Notes: generated by a model not told the origin, from the sequence alone. Shown: positions 475 to 12,609, counted from the first letter of the stretch. The stretch is 64,000 nt of DNA from Opitutales bacterium (GCA_965197745.1 CBDANS010000005.1:224001-288000); one strand, 5' to 3'. A program made the numbers and translations.

Positions 475-511
475 TACCGAGGAACGTAGTAATGCCATAG
501 CGAAGCACTCC
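475..511 (+). repeat. Degenerate copy of the GCGAAGC mini-hairpin insertion element
   Basis: taccgaggaacgtagtaatgccatagcgaagcactcc aligns with the copies at 6404, 10853 and 12552 (TnCCGAGGA start, second GCGAAGC, CC end). Confidence 0.5.
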
Positions 512-5924: not shown

Positions 5925-6280
5925 GACAGTCGCTCACCTGTAGAGGCACATGGATCACAAAGCTTTACATTACTGATCGGACCACGTTTTTCGTACCAAT
6001 TTTTAAGTGAGAGAGTTACCGAGTGTTGATGGTTTTAGGATTGATGTATATGAGAAATCTTGGCGAAGTGAGGGCGTAGCCCTAACGCGGCCAGGATCTG
6101 AAAGGAATCTGACAAACTCTTGCGGGCTTTTAAAGCCTAAACGACTGTAAGGATGTTCATGATTAATAGGTATGACGCCATTGTTCGATTACCACTTGAG
6201 CTTCAGCCACGCTGAGCAACACTTCGCGATTCAAACACTCATCGCGTAAGCGGTTGTGAAACGACTCAATGAAACCATTT

Positions 6281-6323
6281 GTTATTCTCGCTTTGGCTCG
6301 TTGAGGTGTCGCTTCGCTCGGTA
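6281..6323 (-). repeat. 43-nt GCGAAGC-type insertion (net +42, in frame)
   Basis: taccgagcgaagcgacacctcaacgagccaaagcgagaataac splits the conserved PGSPW-Q-NGFIES motif. Confidence 0.8.
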
Positions 6324-6403
6324 GCCAGGGACTGCCCGGATCGATATAGATCGCCTTGATGTTTTTGTCGGACAACCACTGCTGCACCTGATGAGCAATG
6401 AAT

Positions 6404-6435
6404 GGCTTCGCATGTCGTCGCTTCGCTCCTCGGGA
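6404..6435 (-). repeat. 32-nt GCGAAGC-type insertion
   Basis: tcccgaggagcgaagcgacgacatgcgaagcc splits SDNGS-E-FI; 31/32 identical to 10853-10884. Confidence 0.9.
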
Positions 6436-6973
6436 CACTGCCGTTATCACTACGGATATAGCTGGGAGCTCCCTCCTCTTCAATGGCCTCGCTAAGCACA
6501 GAGAGGACATCGGATGAGGTGAGTTGACGAGCTACCCGGATACTCAGATATTTACGCGTATATTCATCGATCAGAGTCATCATCTTTAATGGACCGCCAT
6601 TGTCTGTGCGGTCATGGACAAAGTCCCAAGACCAGACGTGATTGCGCCCCTGTAGAGACCCCTTGACGGTGTCTACGCTTTTTCGGTGGCTTTATCTGCA
6701 GCCCTTCTGAACGTCGTACCGCCTGGACAAACTTCCTGCTTGTTGCCCAGCCTTCCTTTACCAGCAAGGCACGGATGCGCCGGTAACCGTAGCAGGGATG
6801 TTCCCAGGACAGGGTTACAATCCGCTCGGTCAACCTCTGAGCTTTCTTACTGGCTTGCTTGGGCCGGTAGCTGTACGTTGACCAACTGAGGCTGAGATAA
6901 GCACAAGCCCTCCGCAACGAGCACAGCCCTCTGTCAGCCGCATCTTTTACTACTCGCTTCTTCTGCTTTGGGC

Positions 6974-7240
6974 TCACCACTTTTTTGATAGCGTTTCCTC
7001 CATCACCTGATTCTTGAGCATTTGATCAGCGAGCAGTTTCTTCAACTCGGTGTTTTCTTTTTCCAGCTCTTTAAATCGCTTCGCATCGGCCAGTTCCAAG
7101 TTGCCATACTTTTTACGCCAGCGATAGAAGGTCTGTTCACTTAGGTTGTTGCTGCGGCAGATTTCCTCTACCGTTTTACCGGTGTCGGCCTGCCGAAGTA
7201 TTCCTATAATCTGTTCTGTTGTGTATCTTTTTCTTTTCAT
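6974..7240 (-). CDS. IS3 OrfA (HTH transposase)
   Basis: MKRKRYTTEQIIGIL...SEQTFYRWRKKYG...ELEKENTELKKLLAD. Confidence 0.9.
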   Translation of the reverse strand: MKRKRYTTEQIIGILRQADTGKTVEEICRSNNLSEQTFYRWRKKYGNLELADAKRFKELEKENTELKKLLADQMLKNQVMEETLSKKW

Positions 7241-7412
7241 TGAGGTTATCTGTTTATCCCGATAACCTCTCTCTGTAAATGATACGATTTTTGGGGGCAC
7301 ATCAGTGACGTCTGATTACTGATAACTGTAATTCAATTGTTTTTCTTTGACTCATAACACTTAACTCTCAACTTTGCTTACCCTTTTCCGTTAGGTTTCA
7401 TAGTCAGACATT

Positions 7413-8504
7413 TTGAAATATAATCCTTATTCTTATTTTACTTTTGGGTTTTTAACTTTGCTGCTTTCTGTACTGCATACTGGAGGTGAGGATATAAAAA
7501 AATCTTCAGCTAAAACGGTCGACCATCCGCAAAACATTCAAAGCCCTGCAGGTATGTTATGGATTCCAGGTGGCGCTTTTATGATGGGAGATGACACAGG
7601 GAATAAGGTAATGCCGCATGGCGGCTATAACAATGAGAGCCCTGTTCATGAGGTGAAGCTCGATGGATTCTGGATAGATATGACTCCCGTGATAAACGAA
7701 CAATACGCGAAGTTTGTGGAAGAGACAGGTTACATTACCTATTCAGAACAAAAGCCCAAAGCGGAAGATTGGCCGGGTGCACTACCTGAGATGCTTATTC
7801 CCGCATCGATTGTTTTTAAACAACCCACCGGCAAAGTTGACATGAGAAATTTATATAACTGGTGGGAATATAAACCAGGTGCAAATTGGCGACATCCCGA
7901 AGGACTGGAAAGCAGTATCGAAGAGAGAATGAATCATCCCGTGGTACATGTGACCTATGATGACGCAATGGCTTATTGCAAATGGGCAGGTAAGGAGATG
8001 CCTACCGAAGCACAATGGGAGTACGCAGCACGTGGTCGCTTGGATAATAAGGTATACACATGGGGAGATCAACCCGAGCATCTTGAGAATAAAGTGATGA
8101 ATTATTGGGAAGGGAATTTCCCTTACGAAAACAGTGGCAACGATGGCCATAGTATTACATCACCTGTTGGCAGTTATCCACCCAACGGATACGGTCTTTA
8201 TGACATGGCCGGCAATGTCTGGGAATGGGTATCAGATTGGTATCATCCCCGGTATTATGAAGTCAGCTCTAAAGAAAACCCTACAGGAGTTATTAAAGAA
8301 CATAGCCTTGATCCTAATGAACCCGGTATTCCAAAACGCATTGTTAAAGGCGGATCATTCTTATGCAGCGAAAATTATTGTACCGGATTCAGGCCGAGTG
8401 CCCGTATGGCTACAGACCCACGATCCAGTTCTAATCACACGGGTTTCCGTTGTGTCGTGACGCAGAAGATGCGGGGAAATATAAATTTCCCAAAATACAA
8501 ATGA
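7413..8504 (+). CDS. Formylglycine-generating enzyme family (FGE-sulfatase/SUMF1) protein
   Basis: FMMG, HPVVHVTYDDA, PTEAQWEYAARG, NGYGLYDMAGNVWEW, GGSFLCSENYC..R, HTGFRC. Hydrophobic N-terminus. Confidence 0.92.
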   Translation: MKYNPYSYFTFGFLTLLLSVLHTGGEDIKKSSAKTVDHPQNIQSPAGMLWIPGGAFMMGDDTGNKVMPHGGYNNESPVHEVKLDGFWIDMTPVINEQYAKFVEETGYITYSEQKPKAEDWPGALPEMLIPASIVFKQPTGKVDMRNLYNWWEYKPGANWRHPEGLESSIEERMNHPVVHVTYDDAMAYCKWAGKEMPTEAQWEYAARGRLDNKVYTWGDQPEHLENKVMNYWEGNFPYENSGNDGHSITSPVGSYPPNGYGLYDMAGNVWEWVSDWYHPRYYEVSSKENPTGVIKEHSLDPNEPGIPKRIVKGGSFLCSENYCTGFRPSARMATDPRSSSNHTGFRCVVTQKMRGNINFPKYK

Positions 8505-8655
8505 CAAAATACAAATAAATTCTAATGATTGAGAAACCAAAACGACAAAAAGGATAAAAGAATATCTGATTCCTTATTATTTAATACCGTTTGGTAATTT
8601 AGATTTTGTAATTTAAATATTATTTGAGATTTGTGATTTGTCTTTTTGTCATTTG
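8498..8655. repeat. AT-rich imperfect palindromic intergenic element, copy 1
   Basis: Ends caaatgacaaaa (8498-8509) and ttttgtcatttg (8644-8655) are perfect complements. A/C-rich left arm, T/G-rich right arm. Confidence 0.65.
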
Positions 8656-8704
8656 AATTTCATGATTTTTCTTTTGACAATTTACCGATCAATCCGGTCC
8701 CACC

Positions 8705-9391
8705 ATGAGCCAATTTATCGACATACGACACGACGAAGAGCGTAATTTTCTTCGTGCCCTTAGATCTTACGACGAAGAACTGGTTAGCGCCGGTCGGGTT
8801 TTCATTGAGACGCTTCACGCAGCTGCCGAGCTTAAGGATTTAGGAAAATGTGTGACAGTATTCGGATCTGCCCGTTTTTCAGACGATCATCCTAGCTATG
8901 TACTGGCTCGCGAGATGGGAAGGCTGTTGGCGATCGATGGCTATACCGTGGTGACCGGAGGAGGTCCAGGAATCATGGAAGCAGCCAATCGCGGAGCTAA
9001 AGATGAGGGGGGCAGATCAATCGGTTGCAATATCAGTCTACCCAGGGAGCAAAAACCAAACCCCTATGTGGATCAGTTTGTTGAATTTGAACATTTCTTT
9101 GTACGCAAGATGATGCTGGTGAAACTCTCCTCCGCTTTTGTCGTTCTGCCTGGTGGATTTGGTACGCTTGATGAAGTTTTCGAGACGCTTACACTCATAC
9201 AGAACGGGAAGATCGAATCCTTTCCTCTCGTCGTCCTGGGTGGCAAGTTCTGGGACGCAATGAGCGAATTTATCACGAATACAATGATTCGTGAAGGAAC
9301 GATCGGTGAAGAAGATCTCAATCTTATTTCCTTCGCAGAGACTCCGCAGGAAGCGGTGCCATTCATCAAAGGCGATAAGAAATCAGAGTAA
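8705..9391 (+). CDS. LOG-family (TIGR00730-type) nucleotide phosphoribohydrolase
   Basis: VTVFGSAR, TGGGPGIMEAANRGA, FFVRKMML, PGGFGTLDE. Confidence 0.93.
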   Translation: MSQFIDIRHDEERNFLRALRSYDEELVSAGRVFIETLHAAAELKDLGKCVTVFGSARFSDDHPSYVLAREMGRLLAIDGYTVVTGGGPGIMEAANRGAKDEGGRSIGCNISLPREQKPNPYVDQFVEFEHFFVRKMMLVKLSSAFVVLPGGFGTLDEVFETLTLIQNGKIESFPLVVLGGKFWDAMSEFITNTMIREGTIGEEDLNLISFAETPQEAVPFIKGDKKSE

Positions 9392-9411
9392 GGTGAAATG
9401 AATTTAAGCAC

Positions 9412-9555
9412 AAAATAACAAGTTACAAACCACAAATAAATTCCAGTAGCCAAAAAACCAATTTACACAAAATAATAATCGAAAACAGTTTGGTTATTTA
9501 GAAATTGTAGTTTGGCTATTATTCGAAATTTGTATTTTGATAAATTGAGATTTAT
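9412..9555. repeat. AT-rich imperfect palindromic intergenic element, copy 2
   Basis: Shares acaaataaattc (9432 vs 8511) and gtttggtwatttaga (9488 vs 8589) with copy 1, with the same arm polarity. Confidence 0.6.
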
Positions 9556-9566
9556 TTAATAATATT

Positions 9567-10220
9567 TTGATTAATCATTCAGAAATTCATAAAAACTCGG
9601 CAAGTCGGATCATTGCGATTACGCTAATCTTTTCGATTGGATATACGATACTTCGCTACCACATCGTCGGTCCGGTACCGTGGAAAGATTTCCCCTTTTT
9701 TATTTTAAATAAAGGGGTCTCACTAAGTGCATTTATATTGCTGACTTTTAATTTCAGTTTGGGACCGTTGAAAAACCTGGGATTAAAAGTTCCTGAAAGC
9801 TGGCTCAATGCCCGCAATGCTTTAGGTATGAGCGGATTCTTGCTAGTGCTCATCCATGCATTAATGAGCTTCATGCTGTTTAATCCAAAAATATACGGAA
9901 AGTTTTTTGATCAAGACGGTTCGCTTACACTATTGGCAGGCATAAGTATGCTCGGTGGTGTTTTAGCCTTTGTCATTCTCTGGGGTTACAACCTGAGTTT
10001 TCTAACCCATCTGAGAGAAGACAAGGCATTCATCCAATTTATTACCACACGGAAATTCCTCCTAGTAGCGATGATACTCGGTGCAGTTCACTTGTTTTTT
10101 ATGGGCTACAAAGGTTGGCTCAACCCATCCAGCTGGCATGGCGGGCTGCCACCGATCAGTCTGGTGGCGTTTGCATTTTTTGTGAGCGGGTACATGATTA
10201 ATTTGTTTGGGAGAAAGTAA
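9567..10220 (+). CDS. Polytopic membrane protein, ferric-reductase/MsrQ-like transmembrane domain
   Basis: About 6 hydrophobic segments; R-N-A-L-G followed by intramembrane His (LIHA) and a second His (AVHL). Confidence 0.6.
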   Translation: MINHSEIHKNSASRIIAITLIFSIGYTILRYHIVGPVPWKDFPFFILNKGVSLSAFILLTFNFSLGPLKNLGLKVPESWLNARNALGMSGFLLVLIHALMSFMLFNPKIYGKFFDQDGSLTLLAGISMLGGVLAFVILWGYNLSFLTHLREDKAFIQFITTRKFLLVAMILGAVHLFFMGYKGWLNPSSWHGGLPPISLVAFAFFVSGYMINLFGRK

Positions 10221-10351
10221 ATTCTGAAGGACGATTCATCTCATTCGCTGAGCTATAAATAAATATTAAAATATTCCGTTTATAGTACCAAAGATGAAAT
10301 AAGAAATAGTCGAGTGTCGAGGGGCAGGTGTCGAGGGAGGAGTGAAGATAT

Positions 10352-10459
10352 ATGAAAAGTGGATTAAAAGTTTTTGGAGCTTATCATAAATCTATGGAGT
10401 TATTTGATCTTGTTGCACAAGATATGAAAACACTGAAGCCAGAATATTCTTTAACCCGT
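10352..10459 (+). pseudogene. N-terminal fragment of a four-helix-bundle (23S rRNA IVP-like) protein, truncated by IS
   Basis: MKSGLKVFGAYHKSMELFDLVAQDMKTLKPEYSLTR ends exactly at the IS IR. Preceded by short tandem-like repeats (gtcgagtgtcgagggg...gtgtcgaggg). Confidence 0.5.
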
Positions 10460-11753
10460 TGGTCGGGTTACACAAACTGGACCACTGTGAGAGTTAGTCT
10501 GGAGAGGTTAATGTTGAAGTTAAGTTGGTAGAGGGAGTCAAGACTTGGGCGCAATGAGGGCGTAGCCCGAATGGAGCCCGAGCCTTGGGTATTGATGTTT
10601 TCAGCGAAACGTTGTGGAGTAATATTGCCGAGGCTGCGGTGGGGTCGAACATGATTGTAAAGCCAGCGCCAATCTTCGATCACCACACGGGCTTCGGTCA
10701 AAGTCCACAGCTGTTCACGATTTAGACACTCCTCGCGAAAACGTGCATGCAACGATTCGATGTATCCGTTCTGCCAAGGGCTTCCTGGTTCGCTATAGAG
10801 GGTATTGATTTTCATCGCAGTTAGCCAGGCTCTCAATTCCTTTTCAATGAATGGCTTCGCATGTCGTCGCTTCGCTCCTCGGAACGGAACCGTTGTCACT
10901 GCGAATATATTGTGGCGACCCATGACGGGCAAGCAGTTTTTGCATTGATATGGCGATCCACATGGATCACTCGACACTCGCGGGTGCACTCATCGAGCAC
11001 GGTCAACATTTTTAAACTGCCACCGCGGACTGTTTTGTCGTGGATAAAATCCCAAGTCCAAACATGGCCGGGATGTTCGGCCTTTGTCGGCAGCCCGGTG
11101 GAGACACCCCTACGCCGACGCCTTGACTTGCGTGGAGGAATCGCCAAGCCCAGTTCACGTCGCAGACGTTGCACGAGCCGTTTACCCACCTGCCAGCCTT
11201 CGTCCTTCAACAGCTTCGTGATCTTCGGATAGCCCCACCTCGCGTATTACCGTGATAACCGCCTTACTGCCACCTTCAGTTTCGTTAGCCAAGCATCCGG
11301 ATGTTTGAGCCTCATAGGTATAAGTGCAACGGTCCATATGAAAGTATCGGCACGCTGCACACATCGAACACTGGCCCCGAGCCACAAGTCTTTCTGCCAC
11401 TTGCTGCCTGTACTCAGGGCTTACAGTTTTTTTTCAAGCGTCTCCTGCAGGATCTCTATCCCCAGCAGCTTGTCCGCCAGCATCCGCTTTAACTGCGCGT
11501 TCTCCTTCAAAGAGTTCCTTCATCCGCTTGGCCTGGTTGACATCAATCATCCCAAACCACTATTCCAACGGTGGAAGGTCTGTTCGCCTAGTTGTTTTCG
11601 CGGCACACTTCCAGGATCGTTTTCCCTTTGTCTGCCTGCTGCAGCATCCGTATCTCCTCTTCGGTTGTGTAGCTTTTACCTTTCATTGTCTGTGTCCATT
11701 CTAGGTGTCCCAGACTAACTTTTCAAGTGGACCAGTTTTCGTGGTCACGACCA
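10460..11753 (-). mobile_element. IS3-family insertion sequence, degenerate
   Basis: IRs TGGTCGTGACCACGAAAACTGGTCCA (11753 end) and TGGTCGGGTTACACAAACTGGACCA (10460 end). OrfA starts at 11686 (MKGKSYTTEEEIRML) but is frameshifted. OrfB motifs HVWTWDF, VLDECTRE and PGSPWQNGYIES are split across frames. Confidence 0.9.
10853..10884 (-). repeat. 32-nt GCGAAGC-type insertion
   Basis: ttccgaggagcgaagcgacgacatgcgaagcc splits SDNGS-E-FI. Confidence 0.9.
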
Positions 11754-11924
11754 ATATGTAAGTTTAAAATCTGTCATTCCTAGGCACTAAGGTTATTTTT
11801 TTGAGTTACTATTGTATTCCATCGCACTTGGATATTGGCGAATCTATTGTAATAATTATTGTAATTTAGGCCTATTACAGAATTAAAACATTCATAAAAT
11901 TCCTCTTAATAAAGACTTATAAAA

Positions 11925-12010
11925 TGGTGGTGGGAACAGGATTCGAACCTGTGAAGCGAAACCGCAGCAGATTTACAGTCTGCCCCCTTTGGCCGCTTGG
12001 GTATCCCACC
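11925..12010 (-). tRNA. tRNA-Tyr(GTA)
   Basis: GGTGGGA acceptor, anticodon arm gcaga-ctGTAaa-tctgc, long variable arm, GGTTCGAATCC, encoded CCA. Confidence 0.96.
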
Positions 12011-12220
12011 ATCCGGAAATAAGTAGTGAAAAATGTATGCCTATGACAACTTTGCCAAGTATAATTTTGAATATTTTCTATAAATTACGAATGAATGATA
12101 GATACCGAAAGAGAATGCTCCACGGTTAAATTTAACTCGCTTTGAGGATAACAATTAGACATTTTTCCTAGGATTCTATTAATGGTCTGAACTAAAATAA
12201 AAACATTGATAGTTCTAATG

Positions 12221-12297
12221 GCCGGCTTAGCTCAGTTCGGTAGAGCATCCGCCTTGTAAGCGGACGGTCGCCAGTTCGAATCTGGCAGCCGGCTCCA
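12221..12297 (+). tRNA. tRNA-Thr(TGT)
   Basis: GCCGGCT acceptor, tccgc-ctTGTaa-gcgga, GTTCGAATC, CCA. Confidence 0.96.
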
Positions 12298-12386
12298 TTT
12301 TATATACGAATCACTTTCATTGACCCTTAAAAAGAAGATTGAAAATTATTTGTCCCTCGCCTTCTATGAAGCCCCTTTAATTATTC

Positions 12387-12460
12387 TGCCTGGTAGTGTA
12401 ATGGTAGCACGACAGATTCTGGTTCTGTTTGTCTAGGTTCGAATCCTAGCCGGGCAGCCA
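12387..12460 (+). tRNA. tRNA-Gln(CTG)
   Basis: TGCCTGG acceptor, acaga-ttCTGgt-tctgt, GGTTCGAATCC, CCA. Confidence 0.95.
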
Positions 12461-12543
12461 TACGACGCGCTCACTGCGTTCTCTTGCTCATAACAGGTTA
12501 TTTAAAGTAGTAAGGAGATGAGAATAGGCTAGGATGAGAATCG

Positions 12544-12609
12544 TAGATTCGTTCCGAGGAGCGCTATAGCGACGACACAAGCGAAGCGTCCATCCTAGCC
12601 GGGCAGCCA
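12544..12609 (+). repeat. Duplicated tRNA-Gln 3' end, interrupted by a 40-nt GCGAAGC-type insertion (12552-12591)
   Basis: tagattcg[ttccgaggagcgctatagcgacgacacaagcgaagcgtcc]atcctagccgggcagcca versus the tRNA taggttcg-a-atcctagccgggcagcca. Confidence 0.85.

Follow-up and report, generated by a model that had tools for sequence, protein, structure and literature searches.

Hairpin-bearing mini-inserts at fixed codons of IS3-family transposase genes in an Opitutales bacterium

The movement of the smallest dispersed repeats of bacteria, such as REPs without a RAYT and the SDRs, is a long-standing question. It is raised again by several inserts of a few tens of bases in the window, that is, the whole stretch of 64,000 nucleotides from the genome of a marine-type Opitutales bacterium that was analyzed here. 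A preliminary description had listed four insertions and a degenerate copy at 475-511, and on re-reading of the window their coordinates and sequences were found to be as given (Table 1). It had also read them as an ultra-short non-autonomous element or templated-insertion system and had pointed to HUH-type transposases (IS200/IS605, RAYT/REP) as enzymes that recognise hairpins. The question is then whether each of the inserts borne by insertion sequences (IS) arrived by a movement of its own or was multiplied together with its host.

Table 1. Host elements and inserts in the window
Feature	Position	Strand	Length and sequence	Context
IS3-family element, B clade	5974..7297	-		orfA, A AAA AAG slippery site, orfB (rve)
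IS3-family element, A clade	10443..11765	-		Site 1 alone filled; approximate coordinates from sibling alignments
Type-1 insert	6404..6435	-	32 nt, TCCCGAGGAGCGAAGCGACGACATGCGAAGCC	E codon of D-N-G-S-E-F, IS3 orfB
Type-2 insert	6281..6323	-	43 nt, TACCGAGCGAAGCGACACCTCAACGAGCCAAAGCGAGAATAAC	First A of Q codon, P-W-Q-N-G, replaced
Type-1 insert	10853..10884	-	32 nt	D-N-G-S-E-F site, different IS3 subfamily
Type-5 relative	12552..12591	+	40 nt, TTCCGAGGAGCGCTATAGCGACGACACAAGCGAAGCGTCC, then A	Just 3' of two tRNA genes
Degenerate type-4 insert	475..511	+	36-37 nt, TACCGAGGAACGTAGTAATGCCATAGCGAAGCACTC+C	R-D-E-C site, decayed IS3 orfB

The two type-1 inserts of the window share the 32-nt sequence TTCCGAGGAGCGAAGCGACGACATGCGAAGCC, the copy at 6404 starting with TCCC. 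In the clade B element sites 1 and 2 are filled and sites 3 and 4 are empty, there is an additional frame break upstream, and contigs from public runs show loose ends at 7297. Its type-1 insert adds a net 31 nucleotides and shifts the frame, and its type-2 insert adds a net 42 and leaves the reading frame open (LPSEATPQRAKARIT). The host of the insert at 10853..10884 is of the A type with a single-frame transposase, and both filled and empty siblings of subfamily A exist.

The insert boundaries were tested in two independent ways, namely in an alignment of 94 orfB loci of this genome and in the public-run contigs, and the junctions were read by eye in the alignments. Contigs from three runs join 6280 to 6324, skipping 43 nucleotides with one T between (A on the sense strand), and public-run contigs join 6402 to 6436, skipping 33 with CT in the gap (sense strand AG). 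Filled and empty forms are both present in the public-run contigs, which come from three studies. An artefact was ruled out, the same inserts being found in three genomes and in public-run contigs from three studies. In addition, one RNA-library contig runs through both window inserts without splicing. Excision in RNA only was set aside, as filled and empty forms both occur in contigs of RNA-library and other runs, which speak neither for nor against expression. The boundaries first drawn therefore hold for the IS3 copies, of which filled and empty forms were seen in the genome and in the contigs, but they are less firm for the copy at 12552-12591: no empty allele of it was found in the source genome (G000), G032 or G060, and therefore its target is only a reconstructed one. 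This copy sits within a larger hairpin (GGCTAGGATG...CATCCTAGCC). A tRNA-like or other known RNA family was considered for this structure and rejected, the only match being a non-significant one to RtT (18 bits, E 1.3).

Genome-wide, four insert sites are found in orfB, each of them a GAR or CAR codon adjoining a residue of the catalytic motif (D, D, E). The inserts in the IS3 transposase genes are 32-45 bases long, all four types lie in the sense orientation of the host gene, and at all four sites 1-2 bases are lost with zero target duplication. At least one insert is present in 79 of the 85 main-clade IS3 loci (94 orfB loci were found in total). The core alignment of the 94 loci has site 1 filled in 71, site 3 in 32 and sites 2 and 4 in 11 each, and paired upstream and downstream tblastn matches gave 69 filled and 13 empty alleles for site 1. 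Further copies in the genome, expected from the preliminary description, do exist, in numbers well beyond chance: the 32-mer with at most 3 mismatches has 73 copies against 0 for the reversed control. The bare GCGAAGC heptamer occurs 16 times in the window against 7.6 expected, a borderline enrichment since 1 of 100 shuffles reaches 16. An ultra-short gene-less repeat family made of true insertions without target duplication, as had been proposed, is borne out by the filled and empty alleles. The replacement of one A is correct where a single base is lost, but the empty alleles with GAG, at site 1 and site 4, lose AG, that is, two bases, for the insert followed by A.

Type 1 causes a frameshift of +1 and type 4 one of +2, type 3 brings an in-frame TGA and type 2 stays open; three of the four IS3 insert types thus break the frame or add a stop, and the majority of the IS3 copies in this genome are disabled by inserts. 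The transposases would nevertheless stay functional if the inserts were passed over by recoding or removed from the RNA, by ribosomal bypass as in T4 gene 60 or the yeast mitochondrial "byps", by frameshift or by splicing. The insert-bearing copies are young and, apart from the inserts, have open frames where these are expected; the type-2 insert leaves the frame intact and the type-1 insert is open in both frames, all of which would suit such a mechanism. It is nonetheless highly improbable, given the TGA of type 3 and the shifts of types 1 and 4. Moreover, inspection of the junction sequences revealed neither matched take-off and landing codons, with no in-register codon pair of the kind that marks bypass elements, nor a conserved slippery site. 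Exact removal of an insert leaves the gene 1-2 bases short, empty forms exist at the DNA level, both in this genome and in runs without an RNA label, and the RNA-library contig carries both window inserts unspliced.

The distribution of the inserts over the IS3 copies does not agree with independent transposition of the IS-borne copies, as each variant is locked to one homologous site. In the BLAST census type 1 stands at D-N-G-S^F in 73 of 73 copies, and the other types are likewise confined each to its own site (33/33 for type 3, 15/15 for type 2, 17/17 for type 4). The alignment between subfamilies A and B extends over just 125 nt of orfA (76%), yet their insert is identical. Near-identical IS3 copies show every combination of presence and absence of the inserts. 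Over about 1320 nt, filled and empty A copies differ only by one distant SNP and by the change of GAGTTT to G, the 32-nt insert and ATTC, although it is conceivable that these flank changes are synonymous SNPs already present in a GAA-TTC allele. Furthermore, chimeric IS elements are joined at the insert, B on the left and A on the right at C7:1673777, and A on the left and B on the right in genome G032. The locus C6:1393315, considered as a larger insertion, turned out to carry a deletion that runs from the site-1 insert to the site-4 insert. The B2 copies are 99-100% identical at different loci, with two inserts each and frames otherwise open. Variants restricted to one site, chimeras joined at the insert and flanks that change together with it therefore point to amplification of the IS and gene conversion, not to repeated transposition. 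Conversion across subfamilies would have no more than about 15 nt of homology on the left and 8 nt on the right to act upon, which is short for RecA-type recombination, and site-locking is also what would result if each variant homed or were re-inserted efficiently at its specific site.

The inserts derive from a wider repeat family. Its architecture is TWCCGAG-hairpin-CGACAY-tail-CA with overall lengths of 25-45 nt: T(T/A)CCGAG forms the 5' box and is followed by a short variable hairpin, often with a GAA triloop, then by a box CGACA(T/C), a variable tail, which often holds a second GCGAAGC mini-hairpin, and a 3' CA. The basic module of about 28 nt has 27 exact-pattern matches in 25 flank clusters, that is, in unrelated contexts, with flanks made of heptamer-like AATCG/AATCCG words. 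In the pattern TACCGAG-NNN-RAR-NNN-CGACAT all three pairs are kept in 17 of the 27 matches, two in 9 and one in 1, where about 5% would be expected to keep all three, and five different perfect stems occur. Nearest-neighbour DNA folding of the IS3 inserts was not better than that of shuffles (z +0.03 to +1.6), so that the hairpin claim rests on the covariation of the basic-module stems and on the measured stability of d(GCGAAGC), for which PMC13037366 gives a Tm of 76.5 C. In a survey of 121 genomes of the order the pattern was present in six: three of one family, with 27, 37 and 35 occurrences, and three others, with 5, 2 and 1; the reversed-pattern control gave 0.

This family also provides filled and empty alleles. 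A palindromic repeat, repeat R, has one site that is empty in 38 copies and filled in 24, the hairpins there being of at least 5 kinds; modules lie on both of its arms, hence in both orientations, and at its junction AA is replaced by T...CAT, one T beyond what the IS3 rule predicts. The target preference reads [G/C]^A-A(T/A)TC. The bias to G/C^A-A-T-Y-C seen earlier is upheld by IS3 site 1, repeat R and the heptamer-like AATCG regions. Of the three G-A-ATYC sites from which it was first drawn, two represent one homologous site that occurs in two IS subfamilies and are therefore not independent.

Such a target bias may also be read as the mark of an active site-specific mini-transposon or homing element, each copy being inserted separately by an enzyme acting in trans, either a HUH/Y1 protein (RAYT-like) or another nuclease or recombinase. 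This enzyme would read the hairpin module and the conserved target and possibly cut empty sites, which would drive conversion. The occupancy of site 1 is high (69 of 82 alleles, with at least 6 flank variants), the termini are conserved while the hairpins vary and covary, as is expected of structure-reading ssDNA enzymes, one site of repeat R has been taken by different hairpin variants, and of the 6 genomes carrying the family 5 contain Y1_Tnp homologues. Separate insertion of each copy is nevertheless rather unlikely. The variants are strictly locked to their sites, and in a distant IS3 subgroup, which shares the CCG-AG-TTT core but lacks homology on the right flank, 9 of 9 copies are empty. 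No acting enzyme is encoded in the window, as had been supposed, and the HUH/RAYT candidate fares poorly: the sole PF01797 (Y1_Tnp) locus of the source genome is a frame of 198 aa (320-350 aa in relatives) flanked not by family repeats but by unrelated 25-nt inverted repeats. Within 1.5 kb of the Y1 loci L001, L014, L016 and L017, four of the five inspected, no family element was found; in G012 a truncated Y1 gene has one type-2-like copy on its 3' side, at a distance of about 270 nt. The co-occurrence check likewise speaks against this candidate, Y1_Tnp being present in 62 of the 121 genomes of the order and the repeat family in just 6, so that 57 genomes have Y1_Tnp without the family. The loss of 1-2 target bases is also unlike IS200/IS605.

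Reverse transcription of an RNA intermediate is another conceivable way of copying the modules. All four IS3 types are sense-oriented in a transcribed gene, filled forms occur in RNA-library contigs, and there is an analogy with the cyanobacterial SDRs, for which an RNA route has reportedly been proposed. This route is improbable, since RVT_1 (PF00078) has no match in the 92%-complete genome, a result that also lends no support to the proposed co-occurrence with a reverse transcriptase; the modules of repeat R are in both orientations, and carry-over of DNA is possible in the RNA-library contigs. The position of all four sites beside D, D and E residues, the ruined frame in three of four types and the inserts in 79 of 85 main-clade loci might instead suggest a dedicated host defence system that writes hairpin modules into catalytic codons of IS transposase genes. 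Related modules, however, stand in 25 non-IS contexts and in repeat R, the conserved codons are equally needed for conversion across subfamilies, and a candidate system was not found, which makes such a defence very improbable. A bias to IS genes is to be expected anyway because insertions in needed genes are purged (survivorship) and because of the IS copy number. The mini-inserts are not scars or ends of the tyrosine-integrase element of the genome either, as the end of that element has no TWCCGAG and the element lies at ..CATCGAATCGTT^ in I-E-S-F codons.

The probable explanation, therefore, is a lineage-specific gene-less mini-repeat family that made few insertions and was then multiplied passively with the IS and by conversion. 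The basic module would be mobile, or have been so recently, entering [G/C]^A-A-(T/A) sites and swapping 1-2 bases without duplication, and the acting enzyme apparently recognizes both structure and sequence. A few events of this kind evidently struck the four orfB codons by the D, D and E residues, three of them with ruin of the frame. In outline, the defective but otherwise intact IS copies seem then to have been amplified, presumably mobilized in trans, and homologous recombination or short-patch gene conversion seems to have moved the inserts across IS copies and subfamilies, the flanking homology being supplied by the conserved codons and the insert itself acting as a recombination hotspot. 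Transposase could be supplied by four A copies that are intact, with a frame of 415 aa. No insert-free clade B copy that might serve as such a source was found in this genome, so mobilization of the B copies in trans is assumed. A less likely possibility is that the family would be a new kind of ultra-small mobile element of 25-45 nt, with single-stranded conserved boxes on either side of an exchangeable hairpin. It would insert by cut-and-replace at [G/C]^A-A-T-Y-C sites, with an enzyme outside the known transposase families and a homing-like conversion drive through transposase genes; if so, it would in effect be a parasite that sterilizes insertion sequences.

For the study of very small repeats this lineage is unusually clean material, as it offers dozens of pairs of filled and empty alleles with exact junctions, a defined replacement of 1-2 bases and covarying hairpins between fixed boxes, and the search for the enzyme is narrowed to a restricted set of genomes. 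It also presents a concrete route by which a tiny repeat inactivates most copies of an IS family, and the inserts, as recombination hotspots that give chimeric IS elements, bear on the taming of insertion sequences by genomes. The open-access full-text literature searched yielded no account of mini-inserts with hairpins in IS3 transposase genes at fixed codons.

Among known systems, the IS200/IS605 and REP-RAYT elements resemble the family in their hairpin ends, absence of duplication, short target preference and favouring of one strand or orientation. IS200/IS605 elements enter on the 3' side of a tetra- or pentanucleotide and no target base is lost, whereas here 1-2 bases are replaced at the four IS3 sites and in repeat R, and the family is not tied to any cognate Y1 enzyme. 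MITEs differ as well, for T(T/A)CCGAG at one end and ..CA at the other do not form inverted repeats, and the junctions show no duplication. The Rickettsia palindromic elements (RPE), of about 100-150 bp, are similarly short palindromic repeats inside open reading frames, but they usually keep the frame of functional host genes, whereas here three of four types ruin it and the hosts are transposases. RPE are mentioned in PMC3733652.

The closest known elements are the REPs, with their GTAG- and CGTC/TGTC-tagged superfamilies, and the cyanobacterial SDRs. According to Di Nocera, De Gregorio and Rocco in 2013 (PMC3733652), CGTC/TGTC-tagged REPs have an unpaired CGTC (or TGTC/CCTC) tag at one end, stems of 8-9 bp starting with A/T, loops of 4-5 nt and a CCA tail, and those of the CGTC type are without a dedicated transposase, which is also the case for the family here. 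Like these REPs, the family consists of short dispersed hairpins with an unpaired tag by the stem, the module reading ..TGTCG-stem on the reverse strand (PMC3733652). The basic module is a palindrome with covarying stems and bears a TGTC-like tag (ATGTCG), but its stems are 3-4 bp, its loops 3 nt (GAA/AAA) and its tail CTCGGTA. In contrast to REPs, the copies lie mostly inside transposase genes, which they break, and a single-copy Y1 gene (RAYT) flanked by the REPs that it mobilizes has no counterpart here.

The SDRs resemble the family in being gene-less and tens of bases long, with covarying hairpin, heptamer-like embedding, nesting and recent mobility. Elhai et al. in 2008 (Genome Res 18:1484, reference 43 of PMC3116915) are said to have described SDR1-8 of Nostoc punctiforme and relatives as repeats of 21-27 nt with a conserved predicted hairpin and compensatory changes, reportedly embedded in tandem heptamers or other mobile elements, nested, recently mobile and confined to one coherent cyanobacterial group, and are also said to have proposed an RNA intermediate with reverse transcription for them. 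The family described here shares with them covarying stems, AATCG/AATCCG flanks and copies within other repeats, namely IS3 and repeat R. It differs in belonging to the Verrucomicrobiota (Opitutales) instead of the cyanobacteria, in its length of 25-45 nt and its boxes TWCCGAG and CGACAY, in the defined replacement of 1-2 bases at [G/C]^A-A and in its heavy colonization of the catalytic-motif codons of IS3.

The inserted blocks constitute a well-defined, real family of ultra-small inserted repeats, and the sequences that the preliminary description had listed are present where it placed them (table) in the window, C5:224001-288000 of the genome under study (G000). Bare GCGAAGC is weakly enriched (16 in the window vs 7.6 expected), and the 32-mer, at three or fewer mismatches, has 73 copies in the 4.45-Mb G000 genome, the reversed control giving 0. 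The blocks at 6281, 6404 and 10853 sit within two IS3-family elements, composed of orfA, a slippery A AAA AAG and an orfB with the rve core, and the host of the block at 475 is a third, decayed IS3-family copy. The copy at 12552 is enclosed by a larger hairpin directly 3' of two tRNA genes, and neither G000 nor two other genomes of the order, G032 and G060, yielded an empty allele of this copy; two tandem relatives of the enclosing structure lie at G000:C6:355520-355700, and its RtT match was weak and not significant.

Insert blocks and neighbouring features (window coordinates), and insert sites in orfB
Feature	Position	Strand	Insert	Remarks
Type-1 block TTCCGAGGAGCGAAGCGACGACATGCGAAGCC	6404-6435	minus	32 nt	this copy begins TCCC
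Type-1 block TTCCGAGGAGCGAAGCGACGACATGCGAAGCC	10853-10884	minus	32 nt	same block as 6404-6435
Relative of the 32-nt block	6281-6323	minus	43 nt	
Relative of the 32-nt block (type 5)	12552-12591	plus	40 nt	
Degenerate relative	475-511	plus		
tRNA gene	12221-12294			71.5 bits
tRNA gene	12387-12457			63.1 bits
Hairpin, 10-bp stem	12527-12600			contains the type-5 module; 3' of both tRNA genes
orfB site 1, D-N-G-S-E-F			type 1, 32 nt	net +31; frame shifted
orfB site 2, P-W-Q-N-G			type 2, 43 nt	net +42; frame open
orfB site 3, I-D-E-Y			type 3, 43 nt	net +42; in-frame TGA
orfB site 4, R-D-E-C			type 4, 36 nt	net +35; frame shifted

The sites were defined by MAFFT alignment of the 590-nt orfB cores of 94 loci in G000, gathered by tblastn with window-derived pieces. 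Four polymorphic insert sites were found, each a GAR or CAR codon, and every insert lies on the sense strand. All four follow one junction rule, N-A-R -> N-[T(T/A)CCGAG...C]-A, so that the insert takes the place of one A in an AA empty allele and of both bases in an AG allele, and no target duplication occurs at these junctions. Public-run contigs, which come from three studies, show the junctions independently: comparison with window 6281-6323 gives 43 letters against one letter and with 6403-6435 33 letters against CT, while the empty sites 3 and 4 of the window IS copy are filled there by 43 and 37 letters, respectively. The same contigs carry an extra block of about 20 nt (GCGACCGGTTGCTTTAGTAG) after 6643, near a frame break of the window IS copy (6643-6648); the window copy has probably lost this block through a small deletion, and the block lies outside the insert family.

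In the core alignment, filled loci number 71 at site 1, 11 at site 2, 32 at site 3 and 11 at site 4, and when upstream and downstream hits were paired separately, site 1 was filled 69 times and empty 13 times, site 2 filled 13 times and empty 69 times. At least one insert is borne by 79 of the 85 main-clade loci and none by six. The commonest type of subfamily B (1351 nt, TG...CA ends) occurs at different loci in copies 99-100% identical, all bearing types 3 and 1 in otherwise open frames. Four empty copies of the other main subfamily, A, have a single open 415-aa frame, and their filled siblings terminate after ...DNGSVPRSEATTCKAIH. It is unlikely that recoding or splicing keeps the insert-bearing transposases functional. 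Type 3 carries an in-frame TGA, types 1 and 4 throw the gene out of frame, and no pair of take-off and landing codons was seen; cutting an insert out precisely leaves the gene one or two bases short, empty forms are present as DNA, and an RNA-library contig runs across both window inserts. A dedicated anti-transposase system writing the inserts has a low probability and is not required, as survivorship and copy number would account for the pattern.

Every variant keeps to a single homologous site (type 1 73/73, type 2 15/15, type 3 33/33, type 4 17/17), which speaks against an element transposing freely to N-A-A sites, as such an element should occupy many. The insert is identical between subfamilies whose remaining DNA barely aligns, and is therefore younger than they are. 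In a host tree with the inserts masked, every filled/empty combination appears among near-identical copies. Within one A subfamily, empty and filled members differ over some 1320 nt only in GAGTTT>G[32]ATTC and in a single SNP some distance away, and the two extra changes adjoining the insert, which agree with the flank of other subfamilies, are read as a short co-conversion tract. Furthermore, a chimeric IS (G000:C7:1673777) has a B-type left part and an A-type right part joined exactly at the 32-nt insert, and the reverse chimera, likewise joined, occurs in G032 (extracted loci L006 and L012). In the copy at G000:C6:1393315-1393420 the stretch between the site-1 and site-4 inserts is deleted (junction TTCCGAGG|GAAGCGCTC), a sign that two directly oriented inserts have recombined. 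A distant IS3 subgroup, with a similar core (CCG-AG-TTT) and an unrelated right flank, is never filled (9/9 copies empty). True site-specific re-insertion or homing is the main rival to passive conversion as an account of this site-locking. Site-locking, the young insert, mosaics, conversion signature, chimeras, deletion and flank homology together point to passive copying, in which primary insertions into orfB would have been few, defective IS copies would have been amplified afterwards, and homology-dependent copying would shift inserts among IS copies; because the conserved codons would supply the homology, the surviving sites adjoin catalytic-motif residues.

The IS3 variants are built on the same plan as a basic module, TACCGAG-NNN-RAR-NNN-CGACAT(C)TTCC, which with free stem positions has 27 exact matches in G000, in 25 unrelated flank contexts. 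Three stem pairs are formed in 17 of these, two in nine and one in one, with five different perfect stems. Nearest-neighbour folding did not set the IS3 inserts apart from shuffles, and the stem covariation in the basic module is better evidence than folding for what may be a role of the folded single strand. In Table 1 of PMC13037366, d(GCGAAGC) is exceptionally stable (Tm 76.5 C), and the paper also describes mini-hairpins of this type in phage and plasmid origins, at the priming signals. A screen for filled loci with an empty partner gave 87, that is, 71 of IS3 type and 16 others, the majority of the latter in a long palindromic repeat, R. At one site of R, 38 copies have the empty form GC-AAT-CCAG and 24 the filled form GC-[TACCGAG..hairpin..GACATCTTC-CAT]-TCCAG, with inserts of 25-36 nt, at least five different hairpins and a junction one T beyond the prediction of the IS3 rule. 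The module flanks are mostly AATCG/AATCCG-type words, with G before and AAATC, AATCC or ATTCC after; both these contexts and the R series bear out the target preference proposed earlier, the basic module favouring [G/C]^A-A-T-Y-C, and the fixed boxes can enclose one hairpin or another. Repeat R (GTCATTGCGAGGAGCGAAGCGACGAAGCAATCCAGGGG...CCCCTGGATTGCTTCGTC...) occurs genome-wide in G000 (e.g., C6:507637, C6:1404212 and C7:385241), either arm can bear a TACCGAG module with differing hairpins, and its outer part has a GAGGAGCGAAGCGACGA core in common with the type-1 insert.

Among 201 genomes sampled from the order, the 32-mer occurs in three members of a single family (G000 73, G032 12, G060 14), and it is absent from a fourth member, an 82%-complete genome; the basic pattern occurs in six of 121 genomes (27, 37, 35, 5, 2 and 1 matches; reversed control 0). 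The sole Y1_Tnp (HUH) locus of G000 has a 198-aa frame, vs 320-350 aa in relatives, and is bracketed by a 25-nt inverted repeat unrelated to the insert family. Y1_Tnp is widespread (62/121 genomes, including five of the six pattern-positive ones), so no specific link to the inserts follows. No insert-family element lies near the Y1 gene at four of five loci examined, and in another genome, G012, a truncated Y1 gene is followed on its 3' side, at about 270 nt, by one type-2-like copy. The mechanism first proposed is only partly right: inserted ultra-small repeats with a target preference are retained, the IS-borne copies are site-locked, and an HUH enzyme found no specific support. The Y1_Tnp genes of loci L001 (878-1924; G000:C6:162757-163803) and L015 (G012), both truncated relative to the 320-350-aa relatives, are flanked by repeats of about 25 nt starting GGGTCAGA(C/T)TG, resembling the TIR-flanked tyrosine transposases ('TIRYT') as outlined in Di Nocera 2013 (PMC3733652); in one relative, G038, this protein has 66 matches. 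G000 gave no match to the RVT_1 reverse transcriptases. It has 14 tyrosine recombinase matches, several of them no more than 1-2 kb from an IS3 locus. A multi-copy tyrosine-integrase element sits in orfB just after ..CATCGAATCGTT, at the N-G-Y-I-E-S-F codons (G000:C7:~1066100-1066400; sibling G000:C1:8827); as a source of the mini-inserts it was rejected, because it occupies the I-E-S-F codons and its ends are unrelated, and it is thus a second, unrelated parasite of IS3 orfB.

No description of hairpin inserts at fixed IS3 codons was found in the open-access literature searched. In its behaviour the insert family comes closest to the small dispersed repeats of cyanobacteria. It also resembles REPs of the CGTC/TGTC type, which are without a dedicated transposase (PMC3733652); it departs from the CGTC families in stem, loop and tail, and from the RAYT-linked REPs in that its elements do not flank a RAYT gene.
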